Under the pieces are notes generated by a model. That model saw nothing but the letters and a program-made list of their open reading frames with translations, was not told the DNA's origin and did no database searches. From Candidatus Methylomirabilis oxygeniifera (GTDB lineage Bacteria > Methylomirabilota > Methylomirabilia > Methylomirabilales > Methylomirabilaceae), in contig FP565575.1 in the NCBI GenBank assembly GCA_000091165.1, positions 780,001 to 812,000 of the forward strand: a DNA stretch of 32,000 bases. The letters are read 5' to 3'. The position numbers were made by a program, and so were the translations under genes. Positions 445 through 24,966 of this stretch are shown in pieces; position 1 is the first letter of the stretch; every line of letters begins with the position of its first letter.

Positions 445-1686
445 ATGACTGACCCATTGCCAGACGAGCTATCGGAAGCCGAACGGGCCCGGCGCGCCTT
501 GATCCAATGGTCTCTGGACAAGAGCCACGTGAGACTCGGTAATATGGCCCGCTGGCACAAAGGGACGACTTATCGTCGCATGCCAGACAAGACACAACTA
601 AGCGCCATGGGCATGGATGCGCTGGGCGACGGCTGGTTGCCGGCCGAACCGCTGATTACCCCGGAGACGCGCGTGCTGGCGATCGGCAGTTGCTTCGCGC
701 GATATTTTATCCTCTGGCTTGCAGAACACGGCTTCAACAAAGCGGCCCCACAGTCGCCCTACAATGCGTTGCTGCGGTTTGGCTCCGATTTTGTAAGCCC
801 CGCCGTGGTTGCTCAGCAATTCCGCTGGGCGTTCGACGAACTGGATGACAAGGACGTTCTTTGGATCGGCAAGGATAAGAATATATTTGAGGCGACCGAG
901 GAGCGGCGCCAACTGGTGCGGGATACCTTGTTAGGGACCGAGGTTCTGCTTCTCACCTTGGGGCTGTCGGAGGTCTGGTACGACCGTGTTACAGGCGAAC
1001 CCTTGTGGCGGGCGCTTACGGAGGATCAGTTCGATCCCGAGCGCCATATCTTCCGGGTAGAGACGATGGCGCAAACGCTGCATTATTTGGAGACGATCGA
1101 GCGCTTGCGCGCGCAACACGTCCCAAACATGACGATCATATATACCGTCTCGCCGATTCGTCTCGCGGCGACGTTTCGGCCGGTATCCGCGTTGACCGCT
1201 AGCAGCGCCTCGAAGGCGATTGTGCGCGCGGCCCTGGACGAATTTCTGCGCAATCACCAGGACGGCTTACACCGAAACCTGTTCTATTTTCCGAGCTACG
1301 AACTCGTGACCGAATATTTTGTCGACCCCTACGAACATGATAATCGTCACATTTCGTCTACAGTGGCGGCAGGCATCATCCGTTACTTTGTCGCACACTA
1401 CTGTTCGGCTGACATGATCGAGCGTTCCGGGCGATCTTTGAATGATCTTGAGGGTGCAGGGCAGGATCTGGAGCGGTTCATTCAACAATCAAGAATTGCT
1501 GGTACCGACCCGCGGTCTGGCGAACTACTGGCTCGCATCGCCGAATTAGAGGGTAAGGTGGTCGACCTGCAGAAAATCTGCGATGAGCGGCAGGAAGTCA
1601 TCGTGGGTCTCGATCAGGCGGCGCGGGAACGGCTGGATCTCATTCACCGTCTCGACGCCGAGGTCAAGCGGATTCAAGGGCGGTGA
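445..1686 (+). CDS. GSCFA-family protein (SGNH-like hydrolase fold, function unknown) with C-terminal coiled coil
   Basis: 413-aa ORF carrying the eponymous motif LAIGSCFARYF. The C-terminal roughly 60 aa are heptad-rich and charged (ELLARIAELEGKVVDLQKICDERQEVIVGLDQAARERLDLIHRLDAEVKRIQ). Third codon positions are GC-rich. Confidence 0.8.
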   Translation: MTDPLPDELSEAERARRALIQWSLDKSHVRLGNMARWHKGTTYRRMPDKTQLSAMGMDALGDGWLPAEPLITPETRVLAIGSCFARYFILWLAEHGFNKAAPQSPYNALLRFGSDFVSPAVVAQQFRWAFDELDDKDVLWIGKDKNIFEATEERRQLVRDTLLGTEVLLLTLGLSEVWYDRVTGEPLWRALTEDQFDPERHIFRVETMAQTLHYLETIERLRAQHVPNMTIIYTVSPIRLAATFRPVSALTASSASKAIVRAALDEFLRNHQDGLHRNLFYFPSYELVTEYFVDPYEHDNRHISSTVAAGIIRYFVAHYCSADMIERSGRSLNDLEGAGQDLERFIQQSRIAGTDPRSGELLARIAELEGKVVDLQKICDERQEVIVGLDQAARERLDLIHRLDAEVKRIQGR

Positions 1687-1689
1687 CGG

Positions 1690-1890
1690 ATGCATTCTTG
1701 GTGTGCTATGCTTATTTGCCGAATATCATTCGCGCTGGCCGGCTTCCTCGGTATGCGATGGTGGCGTGGTAACTCCCGCTCTGGCAATGATCGAGCCGGC
1801 TTTTCCATCTTTTATCAATTTTCGGCTGCTTATGTAGGTGCCATTGTGGTCATGCCCCGCAATCCATTAGAAGCGCCCGATAGAAGATGA
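1690..1890 (+). CDS. small hypothetical ORF (66 aa) filling the GSCFA / radical SAM gap; candidate small membrane protein or peptide substrate
   Basis: The ATG lies 3 nt after the upstream TGA (1684-1686), and the stop overlaps the downstream ATG as ATGA (1887-1890). It has two hydrophobic stretches. GC3 is only about 47% by my count and no clear SD is present, so coding status is uncertain. Confidence 0.25.
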   Translation: MHSWCAMLICRISFALAGFLGMRWWRGNSRSGNDRAGFSIFYQFSAAYVGAIVVMPRNPLEAPDRR

Positions 1891-3224
1891 GCCCCGAGTT
1901 CATGTCAGTCGAGTTTCCGTGGAGCGTCGCACGGGATGCGGGGGTCGACATCGCGCTCAAGAAACCGTGGCTCGTCGGATCCAACCACCACTTTCTGCGT
2001 TTCGACTTCTACCCGCTTTTGTCCCCGTCGCACCCGAGCCGGCATCTGGCCTACTTCGACCTGCCTTTGGCAGACCTGGGCGGCCAGAACCTCCGGGCGA
2101 CCTTGTCGGGGAAGGTGTTGATTGTCAGCGACGCGATCCGATCGCACGCGGTCGGCGCAGTGTGGCTCGGGTCCCTGCCCTTCGCCGGCTACTGTCGGCT
2201 GACAGTGTCTCTCTGGAGCACTGAAGGTAACGCGCCCCGACAGATCGAGGCGATCATATCGGGGCCCATGATACTGTCCAGAGACGCGGACATGCCCTTG
2301 GAACGGATCATGGTGGCCATCACCCAGCGTTGCAACCTGAGTTGCCAGATGTGCACGCGGCAACAGGGAGCCGATTTCGATCAGACCGACATCCCATCCG
2401 ATGTCCTGGCGGCGCTGCTCGATGCGGCGTCCGAGTCGGTCTACGTCGGCCTGCAGGGGTTGGGCGAACCGCTTATGCACCGCGGTCTGTCCGGAATCGT
2501 CAGATCATTTCGCGCCCGGATACCCTCCGTCGGTCGTATCGCGCTCACCACCAACGGCACGGCATTGACCCGCGACCGCTCGGCACAACTGATTGCGGAA
2601 GGGCTGAACAGCATTACCGTGTCGATGGACGGCGCGACAAAGGCGAGCTATGAAGCGCGTCGAACCGGCGCCGACTTCGATCTGGTGATCAGGAATATTG
2701 CTGCTGCCGCCTCCTGCGTCCGAACGAGCGGCCGAGACGACGTCTGGATTGCCGCCAACTACATCATGGATCCGGGCAATCTGGCCGAGGTACCAGACTT
2801 CGTGCGACTCGCGGCCTCTCTCGGCCTGTGTGCGGTAAGTTTTTTCCACGGCCGCCTATATCCCGACATGCGGCTTGCCCCGCTGGATGTGCACGAGCTT
2901 TCTAAAATTCGGGTCGAAGCCCAGCGGGTCGGCGTGGACACCGGTGTAAATGTTCGCTTCGCGCGCTCCCGATCGACGCCGCCACCGCAGTGCCCGTTCA
3001 TGAACAGCGCCTATCTGTGGCTCACCGGCGAAGTCGTCGCCTGCGATCGAATGGAACCGCCCGGTCGACCATGGCCGACCCGTATCTTTGGCAACGTCCG
3101 CGAATCGCCGCTCGCTGAGATCTGGAACCGTCCCGAGTACCGGGCGTTCCGACAGGGAGTACTTTCGGAAAACCTGCCAGACGAATGCCGCGGCTGCACC
3201 TTCTGCGACAGTGTGGTCTGTTGA
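1887..3224 (+). CDS. radical SAM / SPASM-domain enzyme with a roughly 140-aa N-terminal extension
   Basis: CX3CX2C cluster motif in ITQRCNLSCQMC and Gly-rich GLQGLGEPL. The Cys-rich C-terminus is SPASM-like (CPFMNSAYLWLTGEVVACD...GNVRESPLAEIW...CRGCTFCDSVVC). The N-terminal extension has strongly GC-rich third positions, so it is translated. Confidence 0.85.
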   Translation: MSPEFMSVEFPWSVARDAGVDIALKKPWLVGSNHHFLRFDFYPLLSPSHPSRHLAYFDLPLADLGGQNLRATLSGKVLIVSDAIRSHAVGAVWLGSLPFAGYCRLTVSLWSTEGNAPRQIEAIISGPMILSRDADMPLERIMVAITQRCNLSCQMCTRQQGADFDQTDIPSDVLAALLDAASESVYVGLQGLGEPLMHRGLSGIVRSFRARIPSVGRIALTTNGTALTRDRSAQLIAEGLNSITVSMDGATKASYEARRTGADFDLVIRNIAAAASCVRTSGRDDVWIAANYIMDPGNLAEVPDFVRLAASLGLCAVSFFHGRLYPDMRLAPLDVHELSKIRVEAQRVGVDTGVNVRFARSRSTPPPQCPFMNSAYLWLTGEVVACDRMEPPGRPWPTRIFGNVRESPLAEIWNRPEYRAFRQGVLSENLPDECRGCTFCDSVVC

Positions 3225-4424: not shown

Positions 4425-4670
4425 ATGCTTGCCGAGTATATCGATAAGGCGATGGAACAAGCTGTGTACGAGATCATCGAGGATGAGCGAACCTACTGGG
4501 GCGAGATTCCTGGTCTTCAAGGCGTGTGGGCACGTCATGCCACCTTGGAGGGATGCCGGCGTGAACTCCGCGAGACCGTGAGCGACTGGATTGCCTTGCG
4601 TTTGAGACTGGGTCTGCCGATTCCCGTCTTGGCCGGCATTGATTTGAATCAAATAACACAAGCTGCGTGA
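4425..4670 (+). CDS. hicB: HicB-like (UPF0150) type II antitoxin, short form
   Basis: 81 aa, ...YEIIEDERTYWGEIPGLQGVWARHATLEGCRRELRETVSDWI..., typical of the HicB N-terminal fold. It directly abuts the HicA-like ORF. Confidence 0.7.
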   Translation: MLAEYIDKAMEQAVYEIIEDERTYWGEIPGLQGVWARHATLEGCRRELRETVSDWIALRLRLGLPIPVLAGIDLNQITQAA

Positions 4671-4898
4671 GTGTCGCCAATGCCCCCGTTGGCGCCCGTC
4701 TCCTGGCGCGAACTGGTGAAACGGTTTCGGGAACTCGGTTTTGAAGGGCCGTATGCCGGTGGACGGCATCCCCAAATGCGACGGGTGGATGTGACCGTGG
4801 TTATCCCAAATCAACACGAAGGCGATATCGGCGTGGGGCTCTTGCAACGCATACTCCGTCAAGCTGGAGTATCCCGAGACGAGTGGCTAGGGCAATGA
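4671..4898 (+). CDS. hicA: HicA-family mRNA interferase toxin
   Basis: 75 aa, SWRELVKRFRELGFEGPYAGGRHPQMRR...VVIPNQHEGDIGVGLLQRILRQAGVSRDEW matches the YcfA/HicA pattern (G-x-H ... IP.H..i..G.l..IL.qaG). GTG start immediately after the hicB stop (alternative ATG at 4680). Confidence 0.75.
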   Translation: MSPMPPLAPVSWRELVKRFRELGFEGPYAGGRHPQMRRVDVTVVIPNQHEGDIGVGLLQRILRQAGVSRDEWLGQ

Positions 4899-4966
4899 GC
4901 GTATTGCTCGACAACGCTGCTTCAGATGTGACCATCCCTCCGGCTGCGGTTGTCGGCGGGATCGGG

Positions 4967-5215: not shown

Positions 5216-6172
5216 ATGTCAAGCGACCAACCGCTCGTAACAATCGTTCTCCCGGCTCACAACCGGAGTAATGTCCTGGCATACGCCATTCGCTCGGTCC
5301 TCTACCAGACCTATCCGAACTTCGAGCTGATCGTTGCTGGGGACGGCTGCACCGACGATACCGCGGCCGTTGTTGAAGGATTCAAGGACTCACGGATTAC
5401 CTGGCTCGACCTTCCCAAGGGGTTCGGCTATGGGTATGAAAACCGAAACCGCGCATTGGAACGCGCCAGGGGTGAGTTGATCGCCTATCAGACGCACGAT
5501 GACCTCTGGTTCCCCGACCACCTGTCGTTGCTCGTTACGACCATCCTACGAGATGAGGGTGAGGTTGTGTATTCTCTTCCGATCCATGTTCTGCAGGATG
5601 GGACGGTATTTCAGCATCCATGCGACGTGCGACTTCCCTACTATCGGGAGATGCTGCTCAACGGAGATAATCGCATCGCGAGTATCAACCTCATGCACAG
5701 GCTGAGTGTCGTACGCGACGTGGGTGGCTGGGACGGACGACTCGCACGAAACGGCGTAATGGAGTACTGGCAGCGAATGCTCAAGATGGGAAAGAAGTTC
5801 TCCTACGTCCCAGTCCCAACGGCCTTGGGCTTCTTTGCCTCTCTTCGACCTCATGCGTATCGGGATCGCGATGAGCACGAACAGCGGGCCTACTACGAGC
5901 AGATCGTGGCCGACCCCGGTTGGGTGCACAACTTTCGACAACGGATGGCGGGAGATCTGGGGCGGAGATTTATGGAGCAGGAGGCCAATCTGGCGGCGCG
6001 ACTGGCCGTAATTAACGAATTGACGACTGCCGTACGCGCCTTCGAAGTAGACCGCACGGCGTTACTGAATAGATTAGCTCAGCTTGAGAACAGTGTGCCC
6101 TTCAGGCCCTTCGAATTGTTCCGGAACGTGGCTCGGCGCCTGGCGAATAGGCGTCAGGAGACAACAGGATAG
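5216..6172 (+). CDS. family 2 glycosyltransferase with C-terminal coiled coil
   Basis: [42 protein letters not shown] and HDD (DxD-like) motifs. The C-terminal tail is heptad-like ([38 protein letters not shown]). Confidence 0.85.
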
Positions 6173-6225: not shown

Positions 6226-6798
6226 ATGAACGCGAACGGTTACGGGTTCACCTTGTGGTTTACCGGCCTTTCCGGATCGGGCAAGACGACCTTGGCTCGT
6301 CTGGTGGAACGGGAATTGCTGACCAGAAAACTGAAAGTTGAAGTGCTGGATGGCGATGTGGTTCGCCAGAATCTCTCAAAGGGGTTAGGCTTCAGCAAGG
6401 AAGACCGCGATACGAATATCAGGCGGATCGGCTTTGTCTGTAACCTGCTTGGCCGTAATGGGGTCATCGCCATCGCTGCGGCTATATCGCCCTATCGCAC
6501 TGTACGCGACCAGGTCCGCGCCTCTCAAGACAGCGGCCGCTTCGTCGAGGTGTTCCTCGATTGTCCGATCGAGGCGTGTATTCAACGCGATGTCAAGTCG
6601 CTGTATCGGAAAGCCCTCACCGGCCAGGTTGAGAACTTTACCGGAGTATCCGATCCATATGAGCCTCCTGAACACCCCGAGGTTGTTCTCCACACTGACC
6701 AGGAGACCGAGGAGCAGAGTACAGCAAAGATTTTGGCGTGGTTGGAAGAGAGGGGCTATGTGCTACCCAACGTGATGACGGATGCCTCACATCAATAA
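6226..6798 (+). CDS. cysC: adenylylsulfate (APS) kinase, makes PAPS
   Basis: P-loop in [46 protein letters not shown] and AAISPYR motifs. The 190-aa length is typical of stand-alone CysC. Confidence 0.9.
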
Positions 6799-6852: not shown

Positions 6853-9072
6853 ATGATTCTAGATAAGGAAGAACTCATATTCATACATATTCCACGCACA
6901 GGTGGGACGAGCATAGAGGTAGCACTCGCCGGAAAAGACTGGTGGCTTATTGATCCAGAAACAAAGCATCTCAGCGCAAGTATGTCCAGGAAACTTGTTG
7001 GAGAGAAGAAATGGAGTCGGTACTTTAAGTTCGCAATAGTAAGGAATCCTTTCGATAGAATAATTTCAATGTATGCAACTGGTTGGTGGTGGAAGGCGGG
7101 CTCCAATTTCAATAACACCCGCCCCCCGTCACTCAGAGAGTTCGTTGAAAGGCTTTCTCTGCATCCGTCTGAAAAGTCCAACTCGAAGTTTTACTACCAG
7201 ATTTTGGATGAACAACTGAATTTTGTTGGTAGGTATGAGAGTCTGGAAGTAGATTTCCAGTACATATGCAATCGTGTCGGGTTATCGGTTAAAACGCTGC
7301 CTCACGTTGAAAGAAGAGTAAGAGAGCATTACTCCGTTTACTACGATGAGGAAACGGCTGATAGGGTTGCTCAAATATATAAAACAGATATTGCATTGTA
7401 TGGGTATAGTTTCGATAGAAGATTCAATTTTGATCCAGAGGCAATCAAAAGATTAGGGGCCGTGATCGAACAGCGGGAAGCCCTCGAGGCTGTGACGGCC
7501 GACCGTGATAGTTGGGAGGCCCGCTACCAGGGGCTTGCGACCGAAGCAGAGCGCCGACGGGAGGCGCTGGAGGCTGTGACGGCCGACCGCGATGCCTGGG
7601 AGACCCGCTACCAGGGGCTTGCGACCGAGGCAGAGCGCCGACGGGAAGCCCTCGAGGCTGTGACGGCCGACCGTGATAGTTGGGAGGCCCGCTACCAGGG
7701 GCTTGCGACCGAGGCAGAGCGCCGACGGGAGGCGCTGGAGGCTGTGGCGACACAATTGGATGCGGTGACTCAAAGGTTTTCCTCAACAATTCCGGAAGAG
7801 CCAGGGACATCGGATGAACAGGGTGCGGAAAGTCAACTTGCGCCAAAGCCCGCAGCTCCTCCCTACGCCACTGTGACCCCGGTAGGTCCCCTGGTGTCGA
7901 TTATCACGCCGTCGTATAACCAGGGCCGTTTTATCGAAGAAACCATCCTGAGTGTCCTGACCCAGGATTACCCCAACATTGAGTATATTGTCATGGATGG
8001 CGGCTCAACCGACAACACCTTGGATATCCTGAAGAAGTACGAAGGGCGGCTCACCTGGATCTCCGAGGCTGATCGGGGCCAGTCGCACGCCATCAACAAG
8101 GGCTTCCAAATGGCGAAGGGCGAGGTCCTGGCCTGGCTGAACTCCGATGACACCTACCTTCCGGGAGCGATCAGTAAAGTCGTACAACATCTCCATACCC
8201 ACCCCGAGGCGATGATGGTGTACGGGGAGGGATACCTCATCGACGAGCAGAGCCGTATCACGAGGCGGTTTCCGTATACAGAGGCGTTCAACCTGTGGAA
8301 GCTTATCTATCTGTGGGATAACATTCTTCAGCAGGCGGCTTTCTTTCGACGCCAGGTCTTCGATCGTATCGATCTGCTGGACGAGAACCTTCACTACGGA
8401 ATGGATTGGGATTTGTGGATCAGGATCGGCAAGAAGTTCCGAGTCGATTACATCCCGGAGTATCTGGGCAATCTTCGCGAATACTCGGAAGCCAAGACCT
8501 TTTCCGGGGGCACTACGCGCTTTAATGAGCTGGTATCCTTGATGAGGCGGCATGGGAATCGGCGATTCCCTCCAGGATATTTTACCTATGGCTTCGGTAC
8601 CTACAACAGACGTGTGTTTGGCCGCCTGGCGCATCAATATCCACACGCGTACCGGTTCTTATTTTCGATGCCACGCCTGTTAGGCCAGCGCGTCTGCAGC
8701 CTGATAACACGCTATCTGGTGAACCATTCCCAGGGGTACTACAGTGACGGTTGGGCCTCGCCGAAAGCCCATTTCTCGCTGGCGAATCTCGGCCAGGTGT
8801 CTTCCCTGAGACTTGAGGGCGAACTTCCCAACTTGCGGCCCGACTACCGGACCGCGATCCGCGCCAAGCTCAACGGCCGCCCCATTGGAGATCCGATTAC
8901 CGTCGTTCCGGGAAACTTTACACTGGAATGGGTCATCCCGCAGGAGATGCGATCCTCAGACGTATTTGAGGTGACACTGCTCTCAACTCGCTGGCATCGC
9001 CCCTCACTGACCGGCGCTAATGCCGATCGCCGCAGGTTAGCCTACCGAGTGACGCGGATTTCTGCCGAGTAG
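6853..9072 (+). CDS. multidomain sulfotransferase (family 2) / tandem-repeat coiled coil / GT2 glycosyltransferase / C-terminal DGW module
   Basis: N-terminal domain: PAPS 5'-PSB motif IHIPRTGGTS, RNPFDRIISMY and GRYESLEVDF. Residues about 208-300: three 28-aa repeats. GT2 domain: VSIITPSYNQGRFIEETILSVLTQDYPNIEYIVMDGGSTDNT ... LNSDD. C-terminal module: YYSDGWASPKAHFSL ... ADRRRLAYRVTRI. Confidence 0.85.
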   Translation: MILDKEELIFIHIPRTGGTSIEVALAGKDWWLIDPETKHLSASMSRKLVGEKKWSRYFKFAIVRNPFDRIISMYATGWWWKAGSNFNNTRPPSLREFVERLSLHPSEKSNSKFYYQILDEQLNFVGRYESLEVDFQYICNRVGLSVKTLPHVERRVREHYSVYYDEETADRVAQIYKTDIALYGYSFDRRFNFDPEAIKRLGAVIEQREALEAVTADRDSWEARYQGLATEAERRREALEAVTADRDAWETRYQGLATEAERRREALEAVTADRDSWEARYQGLATEAERRREALEAVATQLDAVTQRFSSTIPEEPGTSDEQGAESQLAPKPAAPPYATVTPVGPLVSIITPSYNQGRFIEETILSVLTQDYPNIEYIVMDGGSTDNTLDILKKYEGRLTWISEADRGQSHAINKGFQMAKGEVLAWLNSDDTYLPGAISKVVQHLHTHPEAMMVYGEGYLIDEQSRITRRFPYTEAFNLWKLIYLWDNILQQAAFFRRQVFDRIDLLDENLHYGMDWDLWIRIGKKFRVDYIPEYLGNLREYSEAKTFSGGTTRFNELVSLMRRHGNRRFPPGYFTYGFGTYNRRVFGRLAHQYPHAYRFLFSMPRLLGQRVCSLITRYLVNHSQGYYSDGWASPKAHFSLANLGQVSSLRLEGELPNLRPDYRTAIRAKLNGRPIGDPITVVPGNFTLEWVIPQEMRSSDVFEVTLLSTRWHRPSLTGANADRRRLAYRVTRISAE
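7474..7746 (+). repeat. in-frame tandem repeat, 84-bp unit x about 3.25 (copies at 7474, 7558, 7642, partial 7726)
   Basis: Copies 1 and 3 differ at one synonymous base (gaa/gag). Copy 2 and partial copy 4 share an alternative codon set (cgggaggcgctggag), so the latest duplication unit is 168 bp. Encodes REALEAVTADRD(S/A)WE(A/T)RYQGLATEAERR. Confidence 0.9.
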
Positions 9073-9179
9073 GCGATTGCTCACACGGCGCATTGCTATG
9101 AACGAGTCCGGAAGCAATTCGGCGGGAGACGCACGCCGCAGCACTGCGAGCGGAAACGAGCCAAAGAGAGGTGTGTGTG

Positions 9180-10439
9180 ATGACAGGGAGTCCTGTGATC
9201 TCAACCCATAATGTCGTTCGAGAACGTATGGATACTTTTATCGTCGTATGCGATAGGGACATTAAGCTACTACGACATTTCTTCTTGAGTTACGAACTCT
9301 TTTTCAGATCACCCGGAAGGATTTATCTCTTTATCTCAAGGAAAGATAAACCTCTGTTAGATCTTGTGCGAAAACCCAAGAATCTTGTGGTGTTGTACAA
9401 AGATGATGTGCCGGACTTGGGCGAAGATGATTTCCGTAATCAGATGTACTTGAAAATGATTGCGGACCGCTATGTGGAAACGGACTGGTTCTGGGTTCCA
9501 GATGCGGACTATCTTATTTGCTCTCCAATTCAAGCCTCTGACTTTATGAGGAGCAAAGTCCATGGCCCCTTGTGGTTTTATCGGAATTGGGATGGTGGTC
9601 CGCCAGAACAATCTTGGCGACAAGGATCCGAGCGGTTTTTGAGAGAAACGATCCCTTTTCTTTTCATGGATGCGGCAGAATATATTATGAATAAAAATAT
9701 ACTGGTCAATTTTAGAGAACTCCATGATCTGGACGACCTGCTGGTTCCTTCTCTAAAGACAAGTGAATTTATTGTGTATGGCGCCTTTGCCCACAGGTTG
9801 TATCACGATTACTATAAATGGATCGATCTTGACAGTGACTCACAAACAAGCTTGGCCTACAAGGTGAACCAGCGCCCACCAACGTATTGCGAACTGGATG
9901 AAGACGTCAATTTATCTTCGATGGGTAGCGCAAAGTATGCGGTTTTCTGGTCTCACTGGGATAAATCCGAGCAGAAAATGGTGGAATTTCTCATTGACGC
10001 ACAGATTCGTGAATTCGGGGAAGTGCGAGTTGAGCCCGACACTCAACCCTTATACCTTGCACTCAAAACTGGCAGCTTATCACGCGATGACTTTATTGCT
10101 ATTGGCGGAGCATATTCGGACGGTTGGGTAAAAACGGAGTCGGCGTTCCATCTTACGGTTCCTATGCCTTGCGAACTTGTACTCAAGCTTGAGGTGCCGT
10201 TGTGTTTGGCGCATAACACAACGAGGTTATCTCTTCAAGCAGACGACACGGTTCGAAATTTTACGTTCACCAAGAGACATCATATGTTGCGCATTCCCCT
10301 TAAGTCAGACATCGATAACATTGTTCGCTTGAATTTCTTCGGGGGGATAGCAGAACCTAACGGTGGGCGAAGATTGTATGCTCAACTTACCCAAATGTTT
10401 GTACAGCCGTATGGCTGGAATCCACTGCGGCGAACCTAA
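9180..10439 (+). CDS. hypothetical protein, possible GT-A-like (DxD) transferase, with C-terminal DGW module
   Basis: Long ORF in AT-richer DNA. The ATG at 9180 lies about 9 nt after AAAGAGAGG; the track GTG at 9171 is an alternative. Contains FIVVCDRD... and WFWVPDADYLI (DxD-like). C-terminus: YSDGWVKTESAFHL ... GGRRLYAQL. The catalytic assignment is weak. Confidence 0.6.
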   Translation: MTGSPVISTHNVVRERMDTFIVVCDRDIKLLRHFFLSYELFFRSPGRIYLFISRKDKPLLDLVRKPKNLVVLYKDDVPDLGEDDFRNQMYLKMIADRYVETDWFWVPDADYLICSPIQASDFMRSKVHGPLWFYRNWDGGPPEQSWRQGSERFLRETIPFLFMDAAEYIMNKNILVNFRELHDLDDLLVPSLKTSEFIVYGAFAHRLYHDYYKWIDLDSDSQTSLAYKVNQRPPTYCELDEDVNLSSMGSAKYAVFWSHWDKSEQKMVEFLIDAQIREFGEVRVEPDTQPLYLALKTGSLSRDDFIAIGGAYSDGWVKTESAFHLTVPMPCELVLKLEVPLCLAHNTTRLSLQADDTVRNFTFTKRHHMLRIPLKSDIDNIVRLNFFGGIAEPNGGRRLYAQLTQMFVQPYGWNPLRRT

Positions 10440-10451
10440 AGGATTCTAAAT

Positions 10452-13259
10452 ATGATGGCATTTTCGATAACACTTCTTTTATTTCTGTATTTCGCGATCG
10501 TTGGTTATGCGATGTTACAAGCATTTCCATCAAGGCTTAAGCCTGCGCTCAACTTACTCATTGCCCCAGCAATCGGTCTGTGCGCGACACTATTGCCGGT
10601 GTTCTACCTTAACCGGTTCGGTATGCCGGTGAAGAGTTTTTCAATATACCTTACTTTAGCTCTTCTTACATTGTCGGCACTTGTCTTATTCAACAATAGA
10701 CCGATCATAGCAAGGCGAAGAGTTGTGGTCGTTTCGGTTTTAGGTCTTCTGATATTGCTGCTGACCTCATGGCCGATGCTGTTCTACGGATTGGATTGGG
10801 TGGCCGTAGGTAATGATGATATGGCGAACTACTGCCTTGCGGCGCAACGGTTCTATCATGAGGGTTTTTTTGATAAGCCGGACATTCTACATATTAAAAA
10901 TGGGTCAAATTACTCGCAGGCATATTGGTTTATGCATGTTGCAGGCGGAGTAAGGCCAGGCAGTGAATTGATGCTTGCATGGGCATGGAGTGTCACCGGC
11001 ATTGAGGCGCCCAGAATCTTTATGTCGGTAATCTCCACATTGCATCTTTGTCTGGCTTTTGCTGTTTCGGGTCTGGCGGCAATGGCAACAAAAAGAAGAC
11101 GGGTATGGCAGATTGCATTGCTGCTATTTGCCATAAACCCACTATCGTCTTGGGGAGTGCATCAACAATTAATTGGTCAGGTTGGAGGCCTCCTGTTGCT
11201 GGTTGTGTCAATAAGCTTACTGTTTCGCGACGCCAGACAATCTACTCCCGGCACAACCATCAGAGGCTTAGTTGTGCCGGTAATGACGATTGGCGGATTG
11301 TTAATCTGGTACCCGGAAGGGTTACCCTTTTTGGGATTGAGCTGGATCATTTTCTTGATTGCAAGCGTGTTGTTTTTGAGGCGTTCCATTCGACCGATTG
11401 TGGTCTATGCCCTAATCCTTGGGGCGCTTGTGATTCTGGCGTTACCTCAATACGGTATCAGCGCCGTTAAATTCATGTTGGCTCAATCGAGATCGGTTGG
11501 AGCAGGAGTAAAAGGTGACCCGACCGGATTATTGTTTCCATATTTTTTGGTTCCAACTGGAATCGCCGCTTTCTGGGGACTTATTCCCGTTCATAGAGGT
11601 ATACCTTCTGAGCCTATAGCCTCCTCGGTTTTTATCGTGGCGCTCACACTTATGTTGTTGCTTGGAAGGCTGCTAGTCAGAGGTATAAAGGAGAAGAACC
11701 CCAGCGCTTGCGTGTTGGTCGTCATGTGCATATTGGCGTTGGCTCTTTACGGAAACATGAACGACTTCGGCTTATATAAGCTTGCCATGTATGCGCAGCC
11801 GTTCGTCATCGCTCTACTGGCATCCTCGTTTCATCAGATCACCCTCAGGCCAATGTGGGTGTTATATCTACTCCTGGTTGTCGTGCTACCCCCTCAGATA
11901 GTTAGCCAATTTTCCTATACGTACAGATCAACAGGAGAAGCACCTGGTAGCGCAGTTGAAATCCAGCACGGATCATCAAAAAAGGTGCTGAGCCAGCTTA
12001 AGACTTTCTTTGAGCGGCTTACCGTAGAATCTTCCAACAAGAACGAACAATTTGTATCGCCGGTTGATAATGTTGTTCTCGCAAAATTGATGGCATTCTA
12101 TTCTCGTGGGTTACAAATCATCTTCACCTCACGAGACTTTTTTGGAGGGATAGCCTCGTTTGCGGATACGCCGGTTCTTTATTCCGAGTATTCTAAGGAC
12201 CGGATGAGAGTCGAATCTTCTTTATATACTGGAAGGAAAATATACCTGGATGGCCAGGAAGTAAATTTCTTTGTGCCATCCGTGCTCAATTCAAGGGCGG
12301 AAGGATTTAGAACTATTGTTGCGTGCAACCAGGGAGCTATTTCGTCGCCTTGTAGTGGTGCGTTACACATTTTAGATTCTAAAGAGACGAGCCCCGTGAG
12401 CTTTATACATTCAGATATTGGCAGCCACTACTACTCGGGCAATAGAAAGAATGCTTCGTTCTTTCAGGCTGAATCGGATATATATTTTCCGGGTGTGTTT
12501 CATTCTTTTGGACGTTATGCGTTAATTCAGGCGCTCGGCGATATTGATAATGCGAGATTCGTATTTGATCTGAGCGGAACGCTTCAGAAGAAACGAGGCG
12601 CGTCGCTCGCAACTGTTACTATCAGCACCGAAAAGACCTCTGCGCCTTTCCGATTTGTTGGCAGAGGATCCGGCCGAATATATAGTGATCCCATTGATCT
12701 GAAGTCATTTGAATACCTGTTGATAGATATGAATATCGTTCCGGAGACATTTCGTAGCAAGAAAACGTTACTCAGATTTGTGTACGGTAGTGACGTATTA
12801 ATCGATATGAGACGTCTTACTCACTTTGTTCGAAAATTTGGAGTACTGGCGAATACGGAGTACCAGGCGCTGAAGCCGCCTCATGCGCTCTCCAAATTCC
12901 CCGCGAATCTCGCTGATCCTGGGCTGGAATATTCCGGCCTCTACGAAGACGGCTGGATTTCCGAACGCTCGTTTTTCGTACTCACCCCCAAGCCGGATAC
13001 TCGCTATCTGGTGATTAAGGGTATGGTGCCGCAGATTGACGCACCAGACTTTCGCAACACGCTAACGGTGAGTATTGATGGTCGGGAAGTCGTCAAACAG
13101 CCCCTTGGCCTTGGTACCTTCGAAGTCAAGGCGCCGGTCTCGGTAAACGGCCAACGTCACCGAATAGATCTTGCCTTCGACCGCTACCAGGTGCTACCTG
13201 GCGCGGATGGACGTCCGACGAGCGGTAAGGTTGCATTCATTGGTTTCACGAGGGATTGA
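10452..13259 (+). CDS. large polytopic membrane protein (about 14 TM) with soluble C-terminal half; candidate GT-C-type glycosyltransferase or glycan polymerase
   Basis: Residues 1 to about 480 form consecutive hydrophobic helices. There is an acidic loop motif after TM4 (GLDWVAVGNDDMANY), as in GT-C first-loop DxD/DD motifs. The soluble domain is about 450 aa and ends with the YEDGWISERSFFVL ... module. AAGGA sits 9 nt upstream of the ATG. Confidence 0.75.
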   Translation: MMAFSITLLLFLYFAIVGYAMLQAFPSRLKPALNLLIAPAIGLCATLLPVFYLNRFGMPVKSFSIYLTLALLTLSALVLFNNRPIIARRRVVVVSVLGLLILLLTSWPMLFYGLDWVAVGNDDMANYCLAAQRFYHEGFFDKPDILHIKNGSNYSQAYWFMHVAGGVRPGSELMLAWAWSVTGIEAPRIFMSVISTLHLCLAFAVSGLAAMATKRRRVWQIALLLFAINPLSSWGVHQQLIGQVGGLLLLVVSISLLFRDARQSTPGTTIRGLVVPVMTIGGLLIWYPEGLPFLGLSWIIFLIASVLFLRRSIRPIVVYALILGALVILALPQYGISAVKFMLAQSRSVGAGVKGDPTGLLFPYFLVPTGIAAFWGLIPVHRGIPSEPIASSVFIVALTLMLLLGRLLVRGIKEKNPSACVLVVMCILALALYGNMNDFGLYKLAMYAQPFVIALLASSFHQITLRPMWVLYLLLVVVLPPQIVSQFSYTYRSTGEAPGSAVEIQHGSSKKVLSQLKTFFERLTVESSNKNEQFVSPVDNVVLAKLMAFYSRGLQIIFTSRDFFGGIASFADTPVLYSEYSKDRMRVESSLYTGRKIYLDGQEVNFFVPSVLNSRAEGFRTIVACNQGAISSPCSGALHILDSKETSPVSFIHSDIGSHYYSGNRKNASFFQAESDIYFPGVFHSFGRYALIQALGDIDNARFVFDLSGTLQKKRGASLATVTISTEKTSAPFRFVGRGSGRIYSDPIDLKSFEYLLIDMNIVPETFRSKKTLLRFVYGSDVLIDMRRLTHFVRKFGVLANTEYQALKPPHALSKFPANLADPGLEYSGLYEDGWISERSFFVLTPKPDTRYLVIKGMVPQIDAPDFRNTLTVSIDGREVVKQPLGLGTFEVKAPVSVNGQRHRIDLAFDRYQVLPGADGRPTSGKVAFIGFTRD

Positions 13260-18330: not shown

Positions 18331-19314
18331 ATGATCATCACGCGAAGTCCGTTACGAATTTCGCTGGGTGGAGGTGGAACCGACCTGCCATCCTACTACT
18401 GCGAACACAGCGGGTTTGTGATCGCCGCCGCTATTGACAGATATGTGTATATTACGTTGCATCATACCTTCGTGCAGGAGCTGATTATCAAGTACTCCCG
18501 GATGGAGCGGGTCCGGACGATCGATGAGGTGCAGCATCCCATTATCCGTGAGGCGCTGAGGCTCACAGAGGTTGGCGCGCCGTACCTGGAAATTACGAGC
18601 ATGGCTGATATCCCGGCCGGTACCGGCCTGGGTTCTTCAGGGAGCTTTACGACGGCACTGTTGAAGGCGCTTCACGCGCTGCGAAAGAATCTTATTCACC
18701 CGCAGGAACTGGCCGAGCAGGCTTGCCATATCGAAATCGATGTCCTCGAAGAACCGGTCGGTAAGCAGGATCAATACATCGCCGCCTATGGCGGGATCAC
18801 CTGTTTCCGCTTCCTGCCCAACCATCAGGTGGAGGCGTGGCCGCTTAAGATCGATACGGATACCTTATACAATCTGGAAGACAATCTGCTGATGTTCTTT
18901 ACCGGCTATTCGCGATCCGCGTCGACAGTGCTCCAGGAGCAGGATACAAAAAGCAAGCAGAACGATAAGGAGATGATTGCGAACCTGCATTTCGTCAAGG
19001 AGCTGGGCCGGGAAAGCAAAGAGGCGCTGGAGACCGGCAAGCTGGAGCGGTTTGCCGAGCTGATGAACGTCCATTGGGAGCACAAGAAGCAACGTTCAGC
19101 CAACATGAGCAATAACCACATCGACCAGTGGTACCAGTTGGCGCGCGGCAACGGCGCGTTGGGAGGCAAGCTGATTGGAGCCGGCGGCGGCGGCTTCTTG
19201 ATCTTTTACGCGGACGACAAGGTGCGCCTCCGACGGGCGATGCGGGAAGCCGGTTTGCAGGAGGTTCGCTTCCGCTTCGACTTTGAAGGCACAAAGCTGA
19301 TCGCGCAATCATGA
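18331..19314 (+). CDS. hddA: GHMP-family D-glycero-alpha-D-manno-heptose 7-phosphate kinase
   Basis: MIITRSPLRISLGGGGTDLPSYY start typical of HddA-type GHMP kinases, GHMP motif PAGTGLGSSGS and C-terminal GAGGGGF. Context with gmhA, gmhB and the nucleotidyltransferase supports the call. Confidence 0.8.
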   Translation: MIITRSPLRISLGGGGTDLPSYYCEHSGFVIAAAIDRYVYITLHHTFVQELIIKYSRMERVRTIDEVQHPIIREALRLTEVGAPYLEITSMADIPAGTGLGSSGSFTTALLKALHALRKNLIHPQELAEQACHIEIDVLEEPVGKQDQYIAAYGGITCFRFLPNHQVEAWPLKIDTDTLYNLEDNLLMFFTGYSRSASTVLQEQDTKSKQNDKEMIANLHFVKELGRESKEALETGKLERFAELMNVHWEHKKQRSANMSNNHIDQWYQLARGNGALGGKLIGAGGGGFLIFYADDKVRLRRAMREAGLQEVRFRFDFEGTKLIAQS

Positions 19315-20027
19315 GCCCTGGGATGCTCCCGGTCGTCATTCTTGCAGGTGGCGTTGCCACACGGCTGCGGCCCCTGACAGAGACCATCCCCAAAGCCATG
19401 GTCGATGTAAACGGAGAGCCGTTTATCGCCCACCAACTGCGTTTGTTGCGTGCCAACGGGATTGAGCGGGTGATTATCTGCGCGGGATATCTGGGTGAGG
19501 TGGTTCAGGCGTATGTCGGCGATGGTGCGCGCTTTGGATTACAAGCGGCGTTCTCTTTCGATGGATCCCGCCTCTTGGGAACAGGCGGAGCCGTCAAAAA
19601 GGCGTTGCCGTTGCTGGGTGATGCCTTCTTCGTCCTATATGGCGATTCCTACTTACCCTGTGATTATCGTGCCGTGCAGACTGCATTCACGTCGAGCGGC
19701 AGATTGTCGCTCATGACAGTGTTTCGAAATGACGGTCACTGGGATACGAGCAATGTTGAGTTTGTCAATGGACGAGTTGTCGCCTATAATAAACAACATC
19801 GTACGCCAGGAATGCACTACATCGACTACGGGCTTGGGATATTTACGCACTCTGCCTTCGAGATTGTTCCAGATGGCCGATCCTATGATCTGGCTGCATT
19901 GTATCAAGATCTTCTGACAAAGGGTGAATTGGCAGCTTATGAGGTGGGCCAACGCTTTTATGAGATTGGATCGTTAGAGGGTTTAGAGGAAACCCGGCGT
20001 TACTTGGCAGAGCAACCCTGCACCTGA
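19311..20027 (+). CDS. hddC: sugar-1-phosphate nucleotidyltransferase, likely D-glycero-alpha-D-manno-heptose 1-phosphate guanylyltransferase
   Basis: VVILAGGVATRLRPLTETIPKAMV (G-x-G-t-R-l motif), VLYGDSY. ATGA overlap with hddA. Confidence 0.75.
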   Translation: MSPGMLPVVILAGGVATRLRPLTETIPKAMVDVNGEPFIAHQLRLLRANGIERVIICAGYLGEVVQAYVGDGARFGLQAAFSFDGSRLLGTGGAVKKALPLLGDAFFVLYGDSYLPCDYRAVQTAFTSSGRLSLMTVFRNDGHWDTSNVEFVNGRVVAYNKQHRTPGMHYIDYGLGIFTHSAFEIVPDGRSYDLAALYQDLLTKGELAAYEVGQRFYEIGSLEGLEETRRYLAEQPCT

Positions 20028-20041
20028 AGAAGGGGTCATGT

Positions 20042-20638
20042 ATGAGTTTTGTGCAACAGTATCTCTCAGAGGCGGGTCAGATCCTGCCGCAACTTGATAC
20101 GGACGCCATTGATCGAGTCGTGGCCTTACTGGCCGAGACCAGAGCAAGAGGCGGACGGCTGTTCATCCTGGGGGTCGGTGGAAGCGCGGCCAACGCCTCG
20201 CATGCAGTCAATGATTTTCGAAAGCTCGTCGGGTTGGAAACCTATACCCCGACAGATAATGTCTCAGAGCTAACCGCGCGCACAAACGATGAGGGATGGG
20301 CGAGCGTATTCGAGGGGTGGCTGCGTATCAGCCGGGTGCAATCGGATGATCTGGTGCTGGTGTTCTCGGTGGGAGGCGGCAACGTCGAGAACAATATCAG
20401 TCCGAATCTGGTCAGTGCGCTGCAATATGCGAAGCGTGTCGGCGCACGGGTCATAGGAGTGGTTGGGCGGGATGGCGGCTACACGGCGCAAGTCGCAGAT
20501 GCCTGCGTGATTGTCCCAACGGTCAATCCTGCTCACGTGACCCCACATACGGAAGCCTTTCAGGCCGTGATCTGGCATTTGCTGGTCTCGCATCCACAGC
20601 TCAAGGCGGCGGAAACGAAGTGGGAATCTGTTCGATGA
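20042..20638 (+). CDS. gmhA: SIS-domain sedoheptulose 7-phosphate isomerase
   Basis: GGRLFILGVGGSAANASHAVNDF and VFSVGGGN motifs. The 198-aa size is typical of GmhA. Confidence 0.8.
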   Translation: MSFVQQYLSEAGQILPQLDTDAIDRVVALLAETRARGGRLFILGVGGSAANASHAVNDFRKLVGLETYTPTDNVSELTARTNDEGWASVFEGWLRISRVQSDDLVLVFSVGGGNVENNISPNLVSALQYAKRVGARVIGVVGRDGGYTAQVADACVIVPTVNPAHVTPHTEAFQAVIWHLLVSHPQLKAAETKWESVR

Positions 20639-21198
20639 AGGAGCAATTGCGTCGAGCTGTATTCCTGGACCGCGACGGGGTTCTCAATCGTGCTATTGTG
20701 AAAAACGGAACCCCTCATCCGCCTGCCACTCTCGCGGAGTTAGAGATCGTGCCGGATGCGTCCAAGGCGCTCGAGGCTCTTAGGGCTGCGGGATTTTTGC
20801 TGATCGGTGTCACGAATCAACCCGACGTTGCGCGAGGAACACAGCGACGGGAGGTGGTAGAAGCCATCAACGCTGCGCTGCTTGCAGTGTTGCCCCTGCA
20901 GGAAATGCTGGTTTGCTACCACGACGATCAGGACGGTTGTGACTGTCGTAAGCCTCTGCCTGGCCTTTTGATTCAGGCCGCTGCCAGATATGGGATCGAT
21001 CTGCCGTTGAGCTTCATGATCGGTGATCGCTGGAAAGATGTTGAAACCGGACGTCGAGCCGGCTGTACGACCGTTCTGATAGGCTGCGGTTATGAGGAGA
21101 TGAGGCCTGACATCGCATCGGATTATACCGCGCATTCGCTTTCCGAGGCAGCAGTGCGGATTCTTAGTCGCTCCAATGCGGAGGGTGGAACCGTATGA
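20635..21198 (+). CDS. gmhB: HAD-IIIA D,D-heptose 1,7-bisphosphate phosphatase
   Basis: AVFLDRDGVLN (DxD nucleophile), GVTNQPDVARG, Zn/Cys motif CYHDDQDGCDCRKPLPG and MIGDRWKDVETG. ATG 20635 overlaps the gmhA stop (ATGA); the track start at 20620 is less likely. Confidence 0.8.
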   Translation: MKEQLRRAVFLDRDGVLNRAIVKNGTPHPPATLAELEIVPDASKALEALRAAGFLLIGVTNQPDVARGTQRREVVEAINAALLAVLPLQEMLVCYHDDQDGCDCRKPLPGLLIQAAARYGIDLPLSFMIGDRWKDVETGRRAGCTTVLIGCGYEEMRPDIASDYTAHSLSEAAVRILSRSNAEGGTV

Positions 21199-21911
21199 AA
21201 TCCGTATCCGAATTAAGGGTCAAAATATTCGCAGACGGCGCGGACAAGACCGGCATCCTGGAAATGTACCGCAACCCGCTGATCAAAGGTTTCACCACCA
21301 ATCCGACGCTGATGCGTAAAGCCGGAGTCTCGGACTATCAGGCCTTTGCGTTTGACATCCTGCGAGCTATCCCCGATCGTCCCATTTCTTTCGAGGTCTT
21401 CTCAGACGACTTCACAGAGATGGCCCGTCAGGCCCGTAAGATCGCAGGATGGGGCGAGAACGTCTATGTGAAGATCCCCGTCACAAACACCCAGGGCGAG
21501 TCGTCCGCAAAGCTGGTTTATGATCTCGCGCGAGAAGGGGTAAAACTGAACGTGACAGCGCTGACAGCGCTGGATCAGGTGCGCGAGATGAGCGCCGCTC
21601 TGGCGGGAGGACCTCCGGCTATTGTGTCGGTTTTCGCCGGACGTGTCGCGGATACCGGCAGAGACCCCGTGCCGCATATGGCGGAGGCCGTGGAGTGTGT
21701 GCGTTCGTACCGGAATATTGAATTGATCTGGGCCAGCCCACGCGAGCTGCTCAATATCATTCAAGCCGACGCCATTGGCTGTCACATCATTACTGTGACA
21801 CAAGATATTTTGAAGAAATTGCACCTCATCGGCAAGGACCTGCATGAGTACTCACTCGACACTGTCAAGATGTTTCACGATGATGCCAGGAACGTCGGCT
21901 ATACGCTGTAG
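21195..21911 (+). CDS. short-form transaldolase / fructose-6-phosphate aldolase family protein
   Basis: KIFADGAD, GFTTNPTL, Schiff-base lysine context NVYVKIPVT and SVFAGR. ATGA overlap with the gmhB stop. Confidence 0.8.
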   Translation: MKSVSELRVKIFADGADKTGILEMYRNPLIKGFTTNPTLMRKAGVSDYQAFAFDILRAIPDRPISFEVFSDDFTEMARQARKIAGWGENVYVKIPVTNTQGESSAKLVYDLAREGVKLNVTALTALDQVREMSAALAGGPPAIVSVFAGRVADTGRDPVPHMAEAVECVRSYRNIELIWASPRELLNIIQADAIGCHIITVTQDILKKLHLIGKDLHEYSLDTVKMFHDDARNVGYTL

Positions 21912-22016
21912 AACCCGGATGGTCCCGCCTGTCGGAGAAGGGACCAGCCCGGTACGAGTAGGATTTACGGAGCTACCGCAGGTGGCTCCATCGGACGCGT
22001 CACGAGGAGCACTCAC

Positions 22017-23057
22017 ATGAAGACCGCACTTATTACCGGCATTACCGGGCAGGACGGCTCGTACCTGACCGAGCTGCTGCTTGCGAAGGGCTACACGGTC
22101 CACGGGCTGATCCGGCGGGCCAGTACGTTTCATACGGAGCGGATCGAGCATCTGTACCAGGATCCGCACGACCCCGAGACCCGTGTCGTCCTGCACTATG
22201 GCGATCTCGCCGATTCCAGCCAGCTTACGAATCTCTTCTATCAGGTCCGGCCGGATGAGGTCTATCACCTGGGGGCGCAAAGCCACGTCCGCGTGAGCTT
22301 CGACATGCCGGACTACACGGGCGACATTACCGGGCTAGGCACAGTCCGGCTGCTGGAGGCGATCCGCAAGAGCGGGGTGGGGTGTCGGATCTACCAGGCC
22401 TCCAGCAGCGAGATGTTTGGGGACGCCCCCGCGCCCCAGAACGAACAGAGCGCCTTCCAGCCGCGCAGCCCCTATGCGGCCGCCAAGCTGTACGCCTACT
22501 GGATGGTGCGCAATTACCGGGAAGGGTACGGGCTCTTTGCCTGTAACGGCATTATGTTTAATCACGAGTCGCCACGGCGGGGGGAGACCTTCGTGACCCG
22601 CAAGATTACACGGGCGGTATCCGCTATCCTCGCCGGACGGCAGAAGATGCTGTTCCTGGGTAACCTTGAGGCTCGCCGCGATTGGGGGTTTGCGCCGGAG
22701 TACGTCGAGGGGATGTGGCTGATGCTCCAGCAGTCGGCGCCGTGCGACCTGGTGTTCGGGACCGGGGAGACCCATTCGGTACGGGAGTTCGTCGAGGAGG
22801 CCTTCGGCTACGTGAACTTGGACTGGCGAGACTATGTGACCGAGGACCCGCGCTACCGCCGCCCCACCGAGGTCCCGCTCCTGCTGGCCGATCCCTCCGA
22901 GGCCAAGCGACGCCTCGGGTGGCAGCCAACCGTCGCATTCCGGGACTTGGTCCGGATCATGATGGACGCCGATCTGGAGGCCGCGGGCCTACCCGCGCCA
23001 GGGCAGGGGACACACTGTCTGACCGACGGTCGACTGGCATGGCTCAGGAAGCCGTGA
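22017..23057 (+). CDS. gmd: GDP-mannose 4,6-dehydratase family enzyme (possibly a GDP-heptose 4,6-dehydratase in this context)
   Basis: [44 protein letters not shown] and NHESPRRG are canonical Gmd motifs. GAGGAG sits 7 nt upstream of the ATG. Confidence 0.9.
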
Positions 23058-24708: not shown

Positions 24709-24966
24709 GTCAACGAGGCTTTCGACTACGTCAACCCCGACTGACGCGACTACGTCACCGAGGACCCACGCTACCGCCGCCCAACCGAGGTCCCGCTCCT
24801 GCCGGCCGATCCCTCCGAGGCCAAGCGACGCCTCGGGTGGTAGCCGACGGTGACCTTCCGCAACCTGGTTCGGATCATGGTGGATGCCGACCTGGAGGCT
24901 GTAGGTCGGACCGCGCCGGGGCAGGGGACGCAGTGCCTGACCGATAGTCGGCCGGCGTGGCTTCAA
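24709..24966 (+). pseudogene. gmd: decayed duplicate of the gmd 3' end (last roughly 85 codons)
   Basis: Aligns by eye with 22801-23057, including an identical 37-nt run (ggccgatccctccgaggccaagcgacgcctcgggtgg). Two in-frame stops replace sense codons: TGG to TGA in D-W-R-D, and CAG to TAG after GW. Confidence 0.75.

Follow-up and report, generated by a model that had tools for sequence, protein, structure and literature searches.

The 32,000-nucleotide stretch of DNA analysed here (contig FP565575.1, positions 780,001 to 812,000; hereafter the window) belongs to Candidatus Methylomirabilis oxyfera, a methane-oxidising bacterium of the phylum NC10. It carries an open reading frame (ORF) for a 739-aa protein (6853..9072; the gene and all its parts are on the + strand), in which a Sulfotransfer_2 domain is followed by a coiled-coil stalk, a disordered linker, a family 2 glycosyltransferase (GT2) domain of the GT-A fold, a group of basic helices and a beta-sandwich. 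An array of near-perfect 84-bp DNA repeats lies in frame within the stalk region and, to judge from the sequence, is recent and unique to M. oxyfera. By analogy, the most likely role of the stalk, to which we give about an even chance, is that of a spacer or ruler of the kind described for WbbB and for ORF6 of the Klebsiella pneumoniae O7 system. The support for such a ruler comes from the swapping of modules around a constant GT2, from the intact enzyme domains, and from the presence of an adjacent adenosine 5'-phosphosulfate (APS) kinase gene and of wzm and wzt in the cluster. We infer capping, polymerase activity, the oligomeric state and the effect on glycan length.

The array was detected by Tandem Repeats Finder (TRF) at 7474-7746, with a period of 84, 3.2 copies, 89% matches, no indels and a score of 462. 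It comprises 3.25 copies in frame (offset 0) with ORF 6853-9072, and its units read REALEAVTADRD(S/A)WE(A/T)RYQGLATEAERR. Copy 1 (7474..7557), with the head GAAGCCCTCGAG and the motif DRDSWE, and copy 3 (7642..7725) are of a derived type. Copy 2 (7558..7641) is of the ancestral type, with the head GAGGCGCTGGAG and the motif DRDAWE as in relatives, and partial copy 4 (7726..7746) repeats the first 21 nt of copy 2 without change. A single base separates copies 1 and 3 (GAA/GAG, synonymous), while copies 1 and 2 differ at 9 bases, of which 5 are synonymous and 4 belong to two codons that are replaced, one from Ser to Ala and one from Ala to Thr; the differences between copies are thus mostly synonymous. 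The three full copies and one partial copy, and the relations among them, are as an earlier note on this DNA had described them from the letters alone. That note had also proposed a very recent duplication of a 168-bp double unit. The identity at offset 168 (104/105) agrees with a recent event, but the stretch of period 168 is only 273 bp long, whereas one tandem duplication of 168 bp should leave 336 bp, so that a second event is needed: a deletion, a left truncation by fusion, or gene conversion.

Comparison with related loci indicates where the array arose. Copy 2 and partial copy 4 have the codon set and the DRDAWE motif seen in relatives, copies 1 and 3 being derived. Past partial copy 4, the helix closes with a non-repeated segment conserved in relatives, and the 84 nt from 7726 differ at just 7 positions from the homologous stretch of the related locus L004. 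Copy 2 is 15 nt away from the orthologous units of the loci L098 and L002, and copies 1 and 3 are 15-19 nt away. Since the copies of the window are mutually 1-9 nt apart and at least 15 nt from every orthologous unit, and since no DNA tandem array was detectable in the stalk genes of the relatives, the array represents a young expansion specific to M. oxyfera. Units so close to one another, and in frame, are capable of recombination or slippage. The earlier note had seen here a ruler made of recombinogenic DNA repeats; as the stalks of the relatives are not DNA tandem arrays, this description applies to M. oxyfera only.

To examine the encoded segment, we used an AlphaFold2 (AF2) model of the 739-aa protein, built with 60 homologues (mean predicted local distance difference test score, pLDDT, 89). 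The model is one of a single chain and contains a continuous helix of 112 residues by DSSP (aa 195-306, 7435..7770; pLDDT 82-87), most of which is made up by the repeat copies. The 28-aa unit equals exactly four heptads and the register is unbroken across all copies; therefore, gain or loss of a unit keeps the coiled-coil phase. The heptad a positions are L, R, Y and A and the d positions V, W, L and R, and 18 of the 27 core positions are strongly hydrophobic. A weak match to the SMC coiled coil covers aa 204-321. If a coiled coil, the helix would be ~16.6 nm long, with ~4.1 nm per unit. As modelled, an extended coiled coil parts the sulfotransferase from the GT end. The single predicted helix and its continuous heptads support the earlier claim of a helix-prone coiled-coil unit, as opposed to a disordered one, and the proposed step of 28 aa or ~4 nm per unit also stands. 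The repeats had further been placed exactly between the sulfotransferase and GT2 domains. They do lie between the two, but the stalk is followed by a flexible linker rich in Pro, Ala, Ser and Glu (aa 306-342, 7768..7878; pLDDT <50 at 305-316 and 318-342) before GT2 begins.

The sulfotransferase domain (aa 1-203, 6853..7461) was delimited from Pfam family PF03567, the GC profile and alignment. Sulfotransfer_2 is matched at aa 2-186 (E 3e-14), the fold is confidently modelled by AF2, and the motifs PRTGGTS and RNPFDRIIS, which bind 3'-phosphoadenosine 5'-phosphosulfate (PAPS), are invariant in the alignment with 203-aa standalone homologues. The best of these (P0122, 70% identity) ends with ...AIERLSG, where the 739-aa protein reads ...AIKRLGAVIEQ and then enters repeat 1. 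The alignment indicates that the entire coding region of a foreign sulfotransferase, up to its natural C-terminus, now runs into the beginning of a repeat unit. Relative to the standalone Sulfotransfer_2 enzymes of polysaccharide clusters, the M. oxyfera version lacks the stop codon and runs into the stalk. All 71 homologues of the domain in a word index (71/71) are standalone proteins. HMMER gave 16,254 homologues; among the best 150, most are standalone proteins of ~180-220 aa and few are extended, and within this sample the fusion appears recent and restricted to M. oxyfera.

The GC content is 43-46% in the sulfotransferase part, 63-67% in the repeats and ~55% in GT2. We considered the high GC of the repeats as a mark of foreign DNA and rejected it, the units being orthologous to those of relatives; their GC follows from an Ala/Arg/Glu-rich composition. 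By its composition, the foreign part of the gene is the low-GC sulfotransferase, which appears recently acquired, and not the repeats. Two low-GC islands (43-46%) were observed, at 6853-7460 and 9171-10439, in a cluster that otherwise has 54-59% GC. Their composition suggests a recent horizontal acquisition of both the sulfotransferase and the ORF for a 422-aa protein. Immediately upstream of the 739-aa ORF lies the APS kinase gene (6226..6798, + strand; Pfam PF01583, E 4e-61), whose product would supply PAPS for the sulfation. An APS kinase gene also adjoins the homologous gene in the loci L001, L002, L100 and L101.

The GT2 domain (7888..8502) is matched by Pfam families PF00535, PF10111 and PF13641, Glycos_transf_2 lying at aa 349-491 (E 3e-30). 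Its sequence and fold matches in the Protein Data Bank (PDB) include the K4CP chondroitin polymerase, the O-polysaccharide fucosyltransferase WrtF, heparosan synthase and SpsA; among its best neighbours in structure and sequence are polymerases (K4CP, heparosan synthase) and WrtF, but also glycosyltransferases of single additions. Four AF2 helices follow at aa 553-625 (8509..8727), basic and aromatic-rich with a net charge of +9, which could form a membrane-interface region. The protein ends in a beta-sandwich (aa 627-739, 8731..9069; pLDDT 91-98) that starts with the motif G-Y-Y-S-D-G-W. A Foldseek search with this fold returned the carbohydrate-binding domain of BcsB, CBM6, CBM36, CBM35 and EclA, all marginally (E ~1e-3), and on these matches the domain may tentatively be called similar to a carbohydrate-binding module (CBM).

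A few sequences of Methylomirabilis type share GT2 and the beta-sandwich at 72-85% identity but differ in the module that precedes them. In P0005 a Sulfotransfer_1-like domain and a stalk precede GT2, and in P0003 and P0004 a GT4 domain and a stalk. P0002, from M. limnetica (L002), has the stalk only, with an upstream coupled gene (ATGA overlap) that gives a weak match to a sulfotransferase PAPS loop, and P0007 (L099) has a short stalk, with a translationally coupled methyltransferase gene upstream. Stalkless arrangements are also found: an FkbM methyltransferase (P0006) or an epimerase (P0014) is fused directly to GT2, and P0008 and hundreds of homologues of ~410 aa consist of GT2 alone. The most variable part across the relatives is the length of the stalk. 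The helical segment ranges from ~50 to >110 residues, the window included, and is ~78-85 residues long in P0003 and P0004. The full unit REALEAVTxDRDxWE is absent from P0007 (0), occurs once each in P0003, P0004 and P0005 (the single unit of P0003 having the divergent head QQALDAVT), twice in P0002 and three times in the window. The stalks of P0002-P0005 and P0007 open with a conserved segment of ~36 aa, VERIL...LHAEAERR, which is missing in M. oxyfera. The number of units is therefore not invariant in related genomes, and the earlier suggestion of a length-variable stalk holds among close relatives, with 0, 1, 1, 1, 2 and 3 units, but no variation was seen among the DNA-identical M. oxyfera records.

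The cluster also encodes a Wzm/Wzt ABC transporter. The genes wzm (ABC2_membrane, 275 aa) and wzt (264 aa) lie at 1-1104 of L006, ~9.5 kb upstream of the start of the window and ~16.4 kb upstream of the 739-aa gene on the same contig, and are divergent from the rest of the cluster. The cluster is thus a glycan cluster of the ABC-transporter type.

In known systems, a coiled-coil ruler has been experimentally established for WbdD (Escherichia coli O9a and K. pneumoniae O3) and WbbB (O12), as the earlier note had correctly cited, and an extended coiled coil in a terminator-bearing protein has been described as 'a characteristic marker' of this mode of assembly (Kelly et al. 2024, PMC11231755). 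ORF6 of K. pneumoniae O7 joins a methyltransferase-kinase, a coiled coil, two GT2 modules and a CBM-like fold (PMC11231755). The M. oxyfera protein shares with O7 ORF6, and with WbbB of K. pneumoniae O12 and Raoultella, the order of an N-terminal modifying or terminating enzyme, a central coiled coil and a C-terminal glycosyltransferase. With O7 ORF6 it also shares a GT2 module and a CBM-like fold, and wzm/wzt are present in the cluster. It differs from both in that the chemistry of the terminator would be sulfation and not addition of Kdo or methyl-phosphate, in having one glycosyltransferase module instead of two, ~40 flexible residues between stalk and glycosyltransferase and a Wzt without a cap-reading CBM, and in that part of its stalk is a near-perfect DNA tandem array. 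WbdD, a kinase-methyltransferase with a membrane anchor, likewise has its terminating enzyme at the far end of a coiled coil, and the length of this coil determines that of the chain (PMC11231755). Its polymerase, WbdA, is however not part of the same polypeptide but is recruited to the base of the stalk, whereas in M. oxyfera the glycosyltransferase is fused, and the catalytic families differ. A literature search on WbdD, coiled coils and tandem repeats found nothing relevant, and searches joining sulfotransferase, coiled coil, O-antigen and ABC transporter found nothing, a census of terminator chemistries lying outside their scope.

On this pattern, the stalk would oligomerise as a coiled coil and hold a capping sulfotransferase ~17 nm away from a membrane-proximal GT2, in the manner of WbbB and of ORF6 of K. 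pneumoniae O7, within an ABC-transporter-dependent assembly. Lipid-linked chains would be sulfated, and so terminated, only once they had grown to about the length of the stalk. Each unit would then move the modal glycan length by ~4 nm, and an ongoing change of copy number within populations would be possible.

Several observations weigh against this ruler. No WbbB or WbdD chains were returned by a PDB-wide phmmer search, which gave generic GT2 matches only; in the absence of sequence similarity, the resemblance to these proteins is architectural and an analogy, not homology. Every terminated system characterised so far has a CBM on its Wzt (PMC11231755), but the local Wzt of 264 aa contains PF00005 only and no Wzt_C, its size leaving no room for a C-terminal CBM. 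It is a matter of speculation whether the beta-sandwich, found on the 739-aa protein and on the next two products, replaces it. The ~40 disordered residues modelled between stalk and GT2 would blur a rigid ruler, no transmembrane segment or membrane anchor was identified in the 739-aa protein, and with a single glycosyltransferase module its part as a polymerase is presumed. The sulfotransferase might decorate internal residues instead of capping the chain, since an intact Sulfotransfer_2 domain is compatible with either. The same GT2 exists in the direct stalkless fusions and alone, the fusion with the sulfotransferase may be very young, and all M. oxyfera records have 3.25 copies, although they are identical in DNA. 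In M. lanthanidiphila, a sister species, the S-layer protein showed no detectable glycans (PMC8671808), which makes a lipopolysaccharide O-antigen or another polymer the more likely product.

Several of these points are shared by the main alternative, in which the stalk is a scaffold or oligomerisation device without ruler function that tethers the enzymes, the sulfate is a decoration and the expansion of units is neutral. Chain length would in that case be set elsewhere, for example by the stoichiometry of transporter to synthesis as in K. pneumoniae O2a, a type in which export is coupled to extension, no cap is read and Wzt has no CBM (PMC11231755). The CBM-less Wzt of M. oxyfera fits such a system, as do the flexible linker after the stalk, the coiled-coil-free fusions of the same GT2 in P0006 and P0014, and the fact that the coiled-coil protein has also been described as a scaffold for complex assembly (PMC11231755). 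However, the swapped N-terminal modules represent chemistries typical of terminators, the closest extended relative of the sulfotransferase stands in a canonical layout of wzm, wzt with CBM and terminator, and a rigid helix of 112 residues far exceeds what a tether needs. We regard a mere scaffold as possible but unlikely. It is improbable, though compatible with a ruler because it presupposes that length matters, that the array is a compensatory re-lengthening, a scar of the fusion event and not a standing device for variability. According to this explanation the incoming sulfotransferase deleted the VERIL part of the stalk, and duplications, selected or tolerated, restored the length. The presence of this segment in P0002-P0005 and P0007 and not in M. 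oxyfera, the junction exactly at a unit boundary with its sharp GC step, and the lineage-specific expansion all agree with it. Moreover, the helix would measure ~56 aa with one unit, ~84 with two, equal to the 78-85 of P0003/P0004, and 112 with three; yet three units exceed the length of the relatives by one unit, and a single genome cannot order the fusion and the duplications.

The fusion could also be an accidental chimera, in which the acquired sulfotransferase has lost its stop codon and the functional product is a coiled coil plus GT2 of 536 aa starting at the GTG at 7462, or the locus is decaying. The annotation of the 2010 M. oxyfera genome gives only these 536 aa, from that GTG, under the name 'GT2 (modular protein)'. 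A junction of very recent date is indicated by the GC step. In relatives (L002, L099) the modifying enzyme is encoded by a separate, translationally coupled gene upstream, and no second case of the fusion was seen among the >16,000 homologues of the domain (as judged from the best 150 of 16,254) or in Methylomirabilis relatives. What makes a chimera very unlikely is that the frame is intact over 2.2 kb with the catalytic motifs of both domains conserved, that the relatives P0003-P0006 are fused to other N-terminal modules, that a sulfotransferase-helix-GT2 fusion exists elsewhere (P0258), and that no convincing Shine-Dalgarno sequence precedes the GTG at 7462. An assembly artefact, by which a near-identical array of 168-bp periodicity was collapsed or expanded, is the least probable explanation. 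It is true that 105 bp at offset 168 are one base apart, which is hard for short reads, and that the whole gene is found on no short-read (Logan) contig; but the complete genome of 2010 and a later metagenome-assembled genome (MAG) agree in sequence, and 8-9 diagnostic differences in copy 2 fix the sequence in which the copies follow one another.

If the stalk is a ruler, a separate question is whether the array still operates as a heritable length dial, by which 84-bp (or 168-bp) recombination would shift the length of a sulfate-capped glycan in ~4 nm steps. Such a dial would be a mechanism of the contingency type whose target is a biosynthetic ruler in the cytoplasm and not a surface protein, and we consider this extended reading, as a whole, quite unlikely. 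In-frame tandem repeats vary the length of other ruler and stalk proteins, such as the injectisome needle ruler YscP and surface fibrils, in which recombination between near-identical DNA units changes the length in steps of whole repeats. YscP and the fibrils are secretion-apparatus or surface proteins, unlike the M. oxyfera protein, which is a biosynthetic enzyme, and we know of no glycan chain-length ruler that is built from a near-perfect DNA tandem array.

We looked for variation of copy number in further sequences. The 739-aa protein is 100% identical to M. oxyfera proteins, and KAB2960842.1, from an M. oxyfera MAG, has the same full 739 aa. The window and the MAG show 0 differences across 11,686 bp, and three M. 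oxyfera records yield one protein sequence, two MAG records sharing the DNA of the gene with the window; being identical in DNA, these assemblies are not independent samples. DNA scans of metagenome contigs gave no further M. oxyfera strains. An exact 20-mer of the unit had 7 chance matches there, of 20-24 nt and without protein similarity, and a degenerate DNA pattern of the unit had 0 matches, a scan that also missed the motif-bearing locus L001, sourced from the Joint Genome Institute. A search of genome contigs for related loci returned only distant GT2 relatives and the MAG with the epimerase fusion; it missed both M. oxyfera and M. limnetica and added no stalk-bearing loci. The stalk alone (aa 196-330) as a protein query gave no match at E ≤ 0.001.

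If the stalk is a ruler, the coiled-coil terminator strategy would extend to a deep-branching phylum and to sulfate capping, and its evolution would have proceeded by phase-preserving duplication of four heptads and by cassette-like swapping of terminators around a constant GT2. Compared with the rulers considered here, the sulfate chemistry, the phylum NC10 and a ruler made in part of a DNA tandem array would be new. The relatives, which have 0, 1, 2 or 3 units and differ in their N-terminal modules, form a natural series in which stalk length can be set against glycan length. Should the stalk be no more than a tether, the gene would be an ordinary recent fusion with a young internal duplication. 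For Methylomirabilis, the cluster points to an undescribed surface glycan that is sulfated and contains heptose or deoxysugars.

Some extended relatives of the sulfotransferase show that its clade is used in layouts of the terminator type, which supports the ruler. P0193 (55% identity) consists of the enzyme, a charged helical tail of ~100 aa and a hydrophobic C-terminus, as in the layout of WbdD. Its gene, in L100, comes directly after wzm and a wzt whose 470-aa product contains PF14524 (Wzt_C), with an APS kinase gene nearby; this is the canonical capped-glycan arrangement. On this unrelated metagenomic contig, the segment 5759-8976 holds wzm, wzt with Wzt_C and a 327-aa sulfotransferase, whose tail has a loosely repeated REWAE/RQWAK motif and which is, by analogy, a candidate for a WbdD-like sulfate terminator. 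P0196 has a coiled coil of ~240 aa rich in Q, L and E. In P0258 (L101), Sulfotransfer_2 is linked by a short helix to GT2, and the gene neighbours wzm and a wzt of 250 aa that lacks a CBM, with PAPS-synthesis genes nearby; P0258 parallels M. oxyfera both in the sulfotransferase-helix-GT2 fusion and in the CBM-less wzt.

Upstream of the APS kinase gene, a second GT2 of 318 aa (5216..6172, + strand; Pfam) has its own C-terminal helical tail of ~70 aa, which might conceivably be a coiled-coil partner of the 739-aa stalk. Downstream of the 739-aa gene lie two conserved genes (9171..13259, + strand), for a 422-aa protein and a 935-aa polytopic membrane protein, both of which end in a G-Y-x-D-G-W beta-sandwich and have no Pfam or NCBIfam domains. 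A similar beta-sandwich of ~100 aa starting with G-Y-(S/E)-D-G-W thus ends three consecutive products (8731-9069, 10107-10439 and 12936-13259), and the three are related by BLASTP (E 6e-7, 0.004 and 0.002). In L002, L098 and L099 the homologue is followed by genes whose products are of similar length (413-418 aa; 900-933 aa), a correspondence judged by size. Further downstream are found a methyltransferase, another GT2, sugar dehydratases and reductases, a GDP-heptose-type set and a GMD-like dehydratase. The region 18331-23057 contains a GHMP kinase, a nucleotidyltransferase, an SIS isomerase and an HAD phosphatase, resembling GDP-heptose synthesis, together with a transaldolase/FSA-like gene and a GDP-mannose-4,6-dehydratase homologue; these genes hint at heptose or 6-deoxyheptose in the glycan. 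L006 also encodes a second sulfotransferase (Sulfotransfer_1/3, 312 aa), a 519-aa GT4 and rhamnose-pathway genes.

Pairs of the toxin-antitoxin type (HicB/HicA; nucleotidyltransferase with HEPN or HepT) were observed in the glycan clusters, or next to them, in M. oxyfera and several relatives (window ~4425-4900 and 28708-29424; L004 330-1243; L005 364-1135; L006 5348-6175). At the upstream edge of the cluster (445-3224) we observed genes for a GSCFA-family protein and a radical-SAM/SPASM protein, the SPASM gene being found in M. limnetica too (L002 6351-6878). Finally, the only other TRF match in the 32 kb is a weak one at 24723-24771, with a period of 24, 2 copies, 76% matches and a score of 56.

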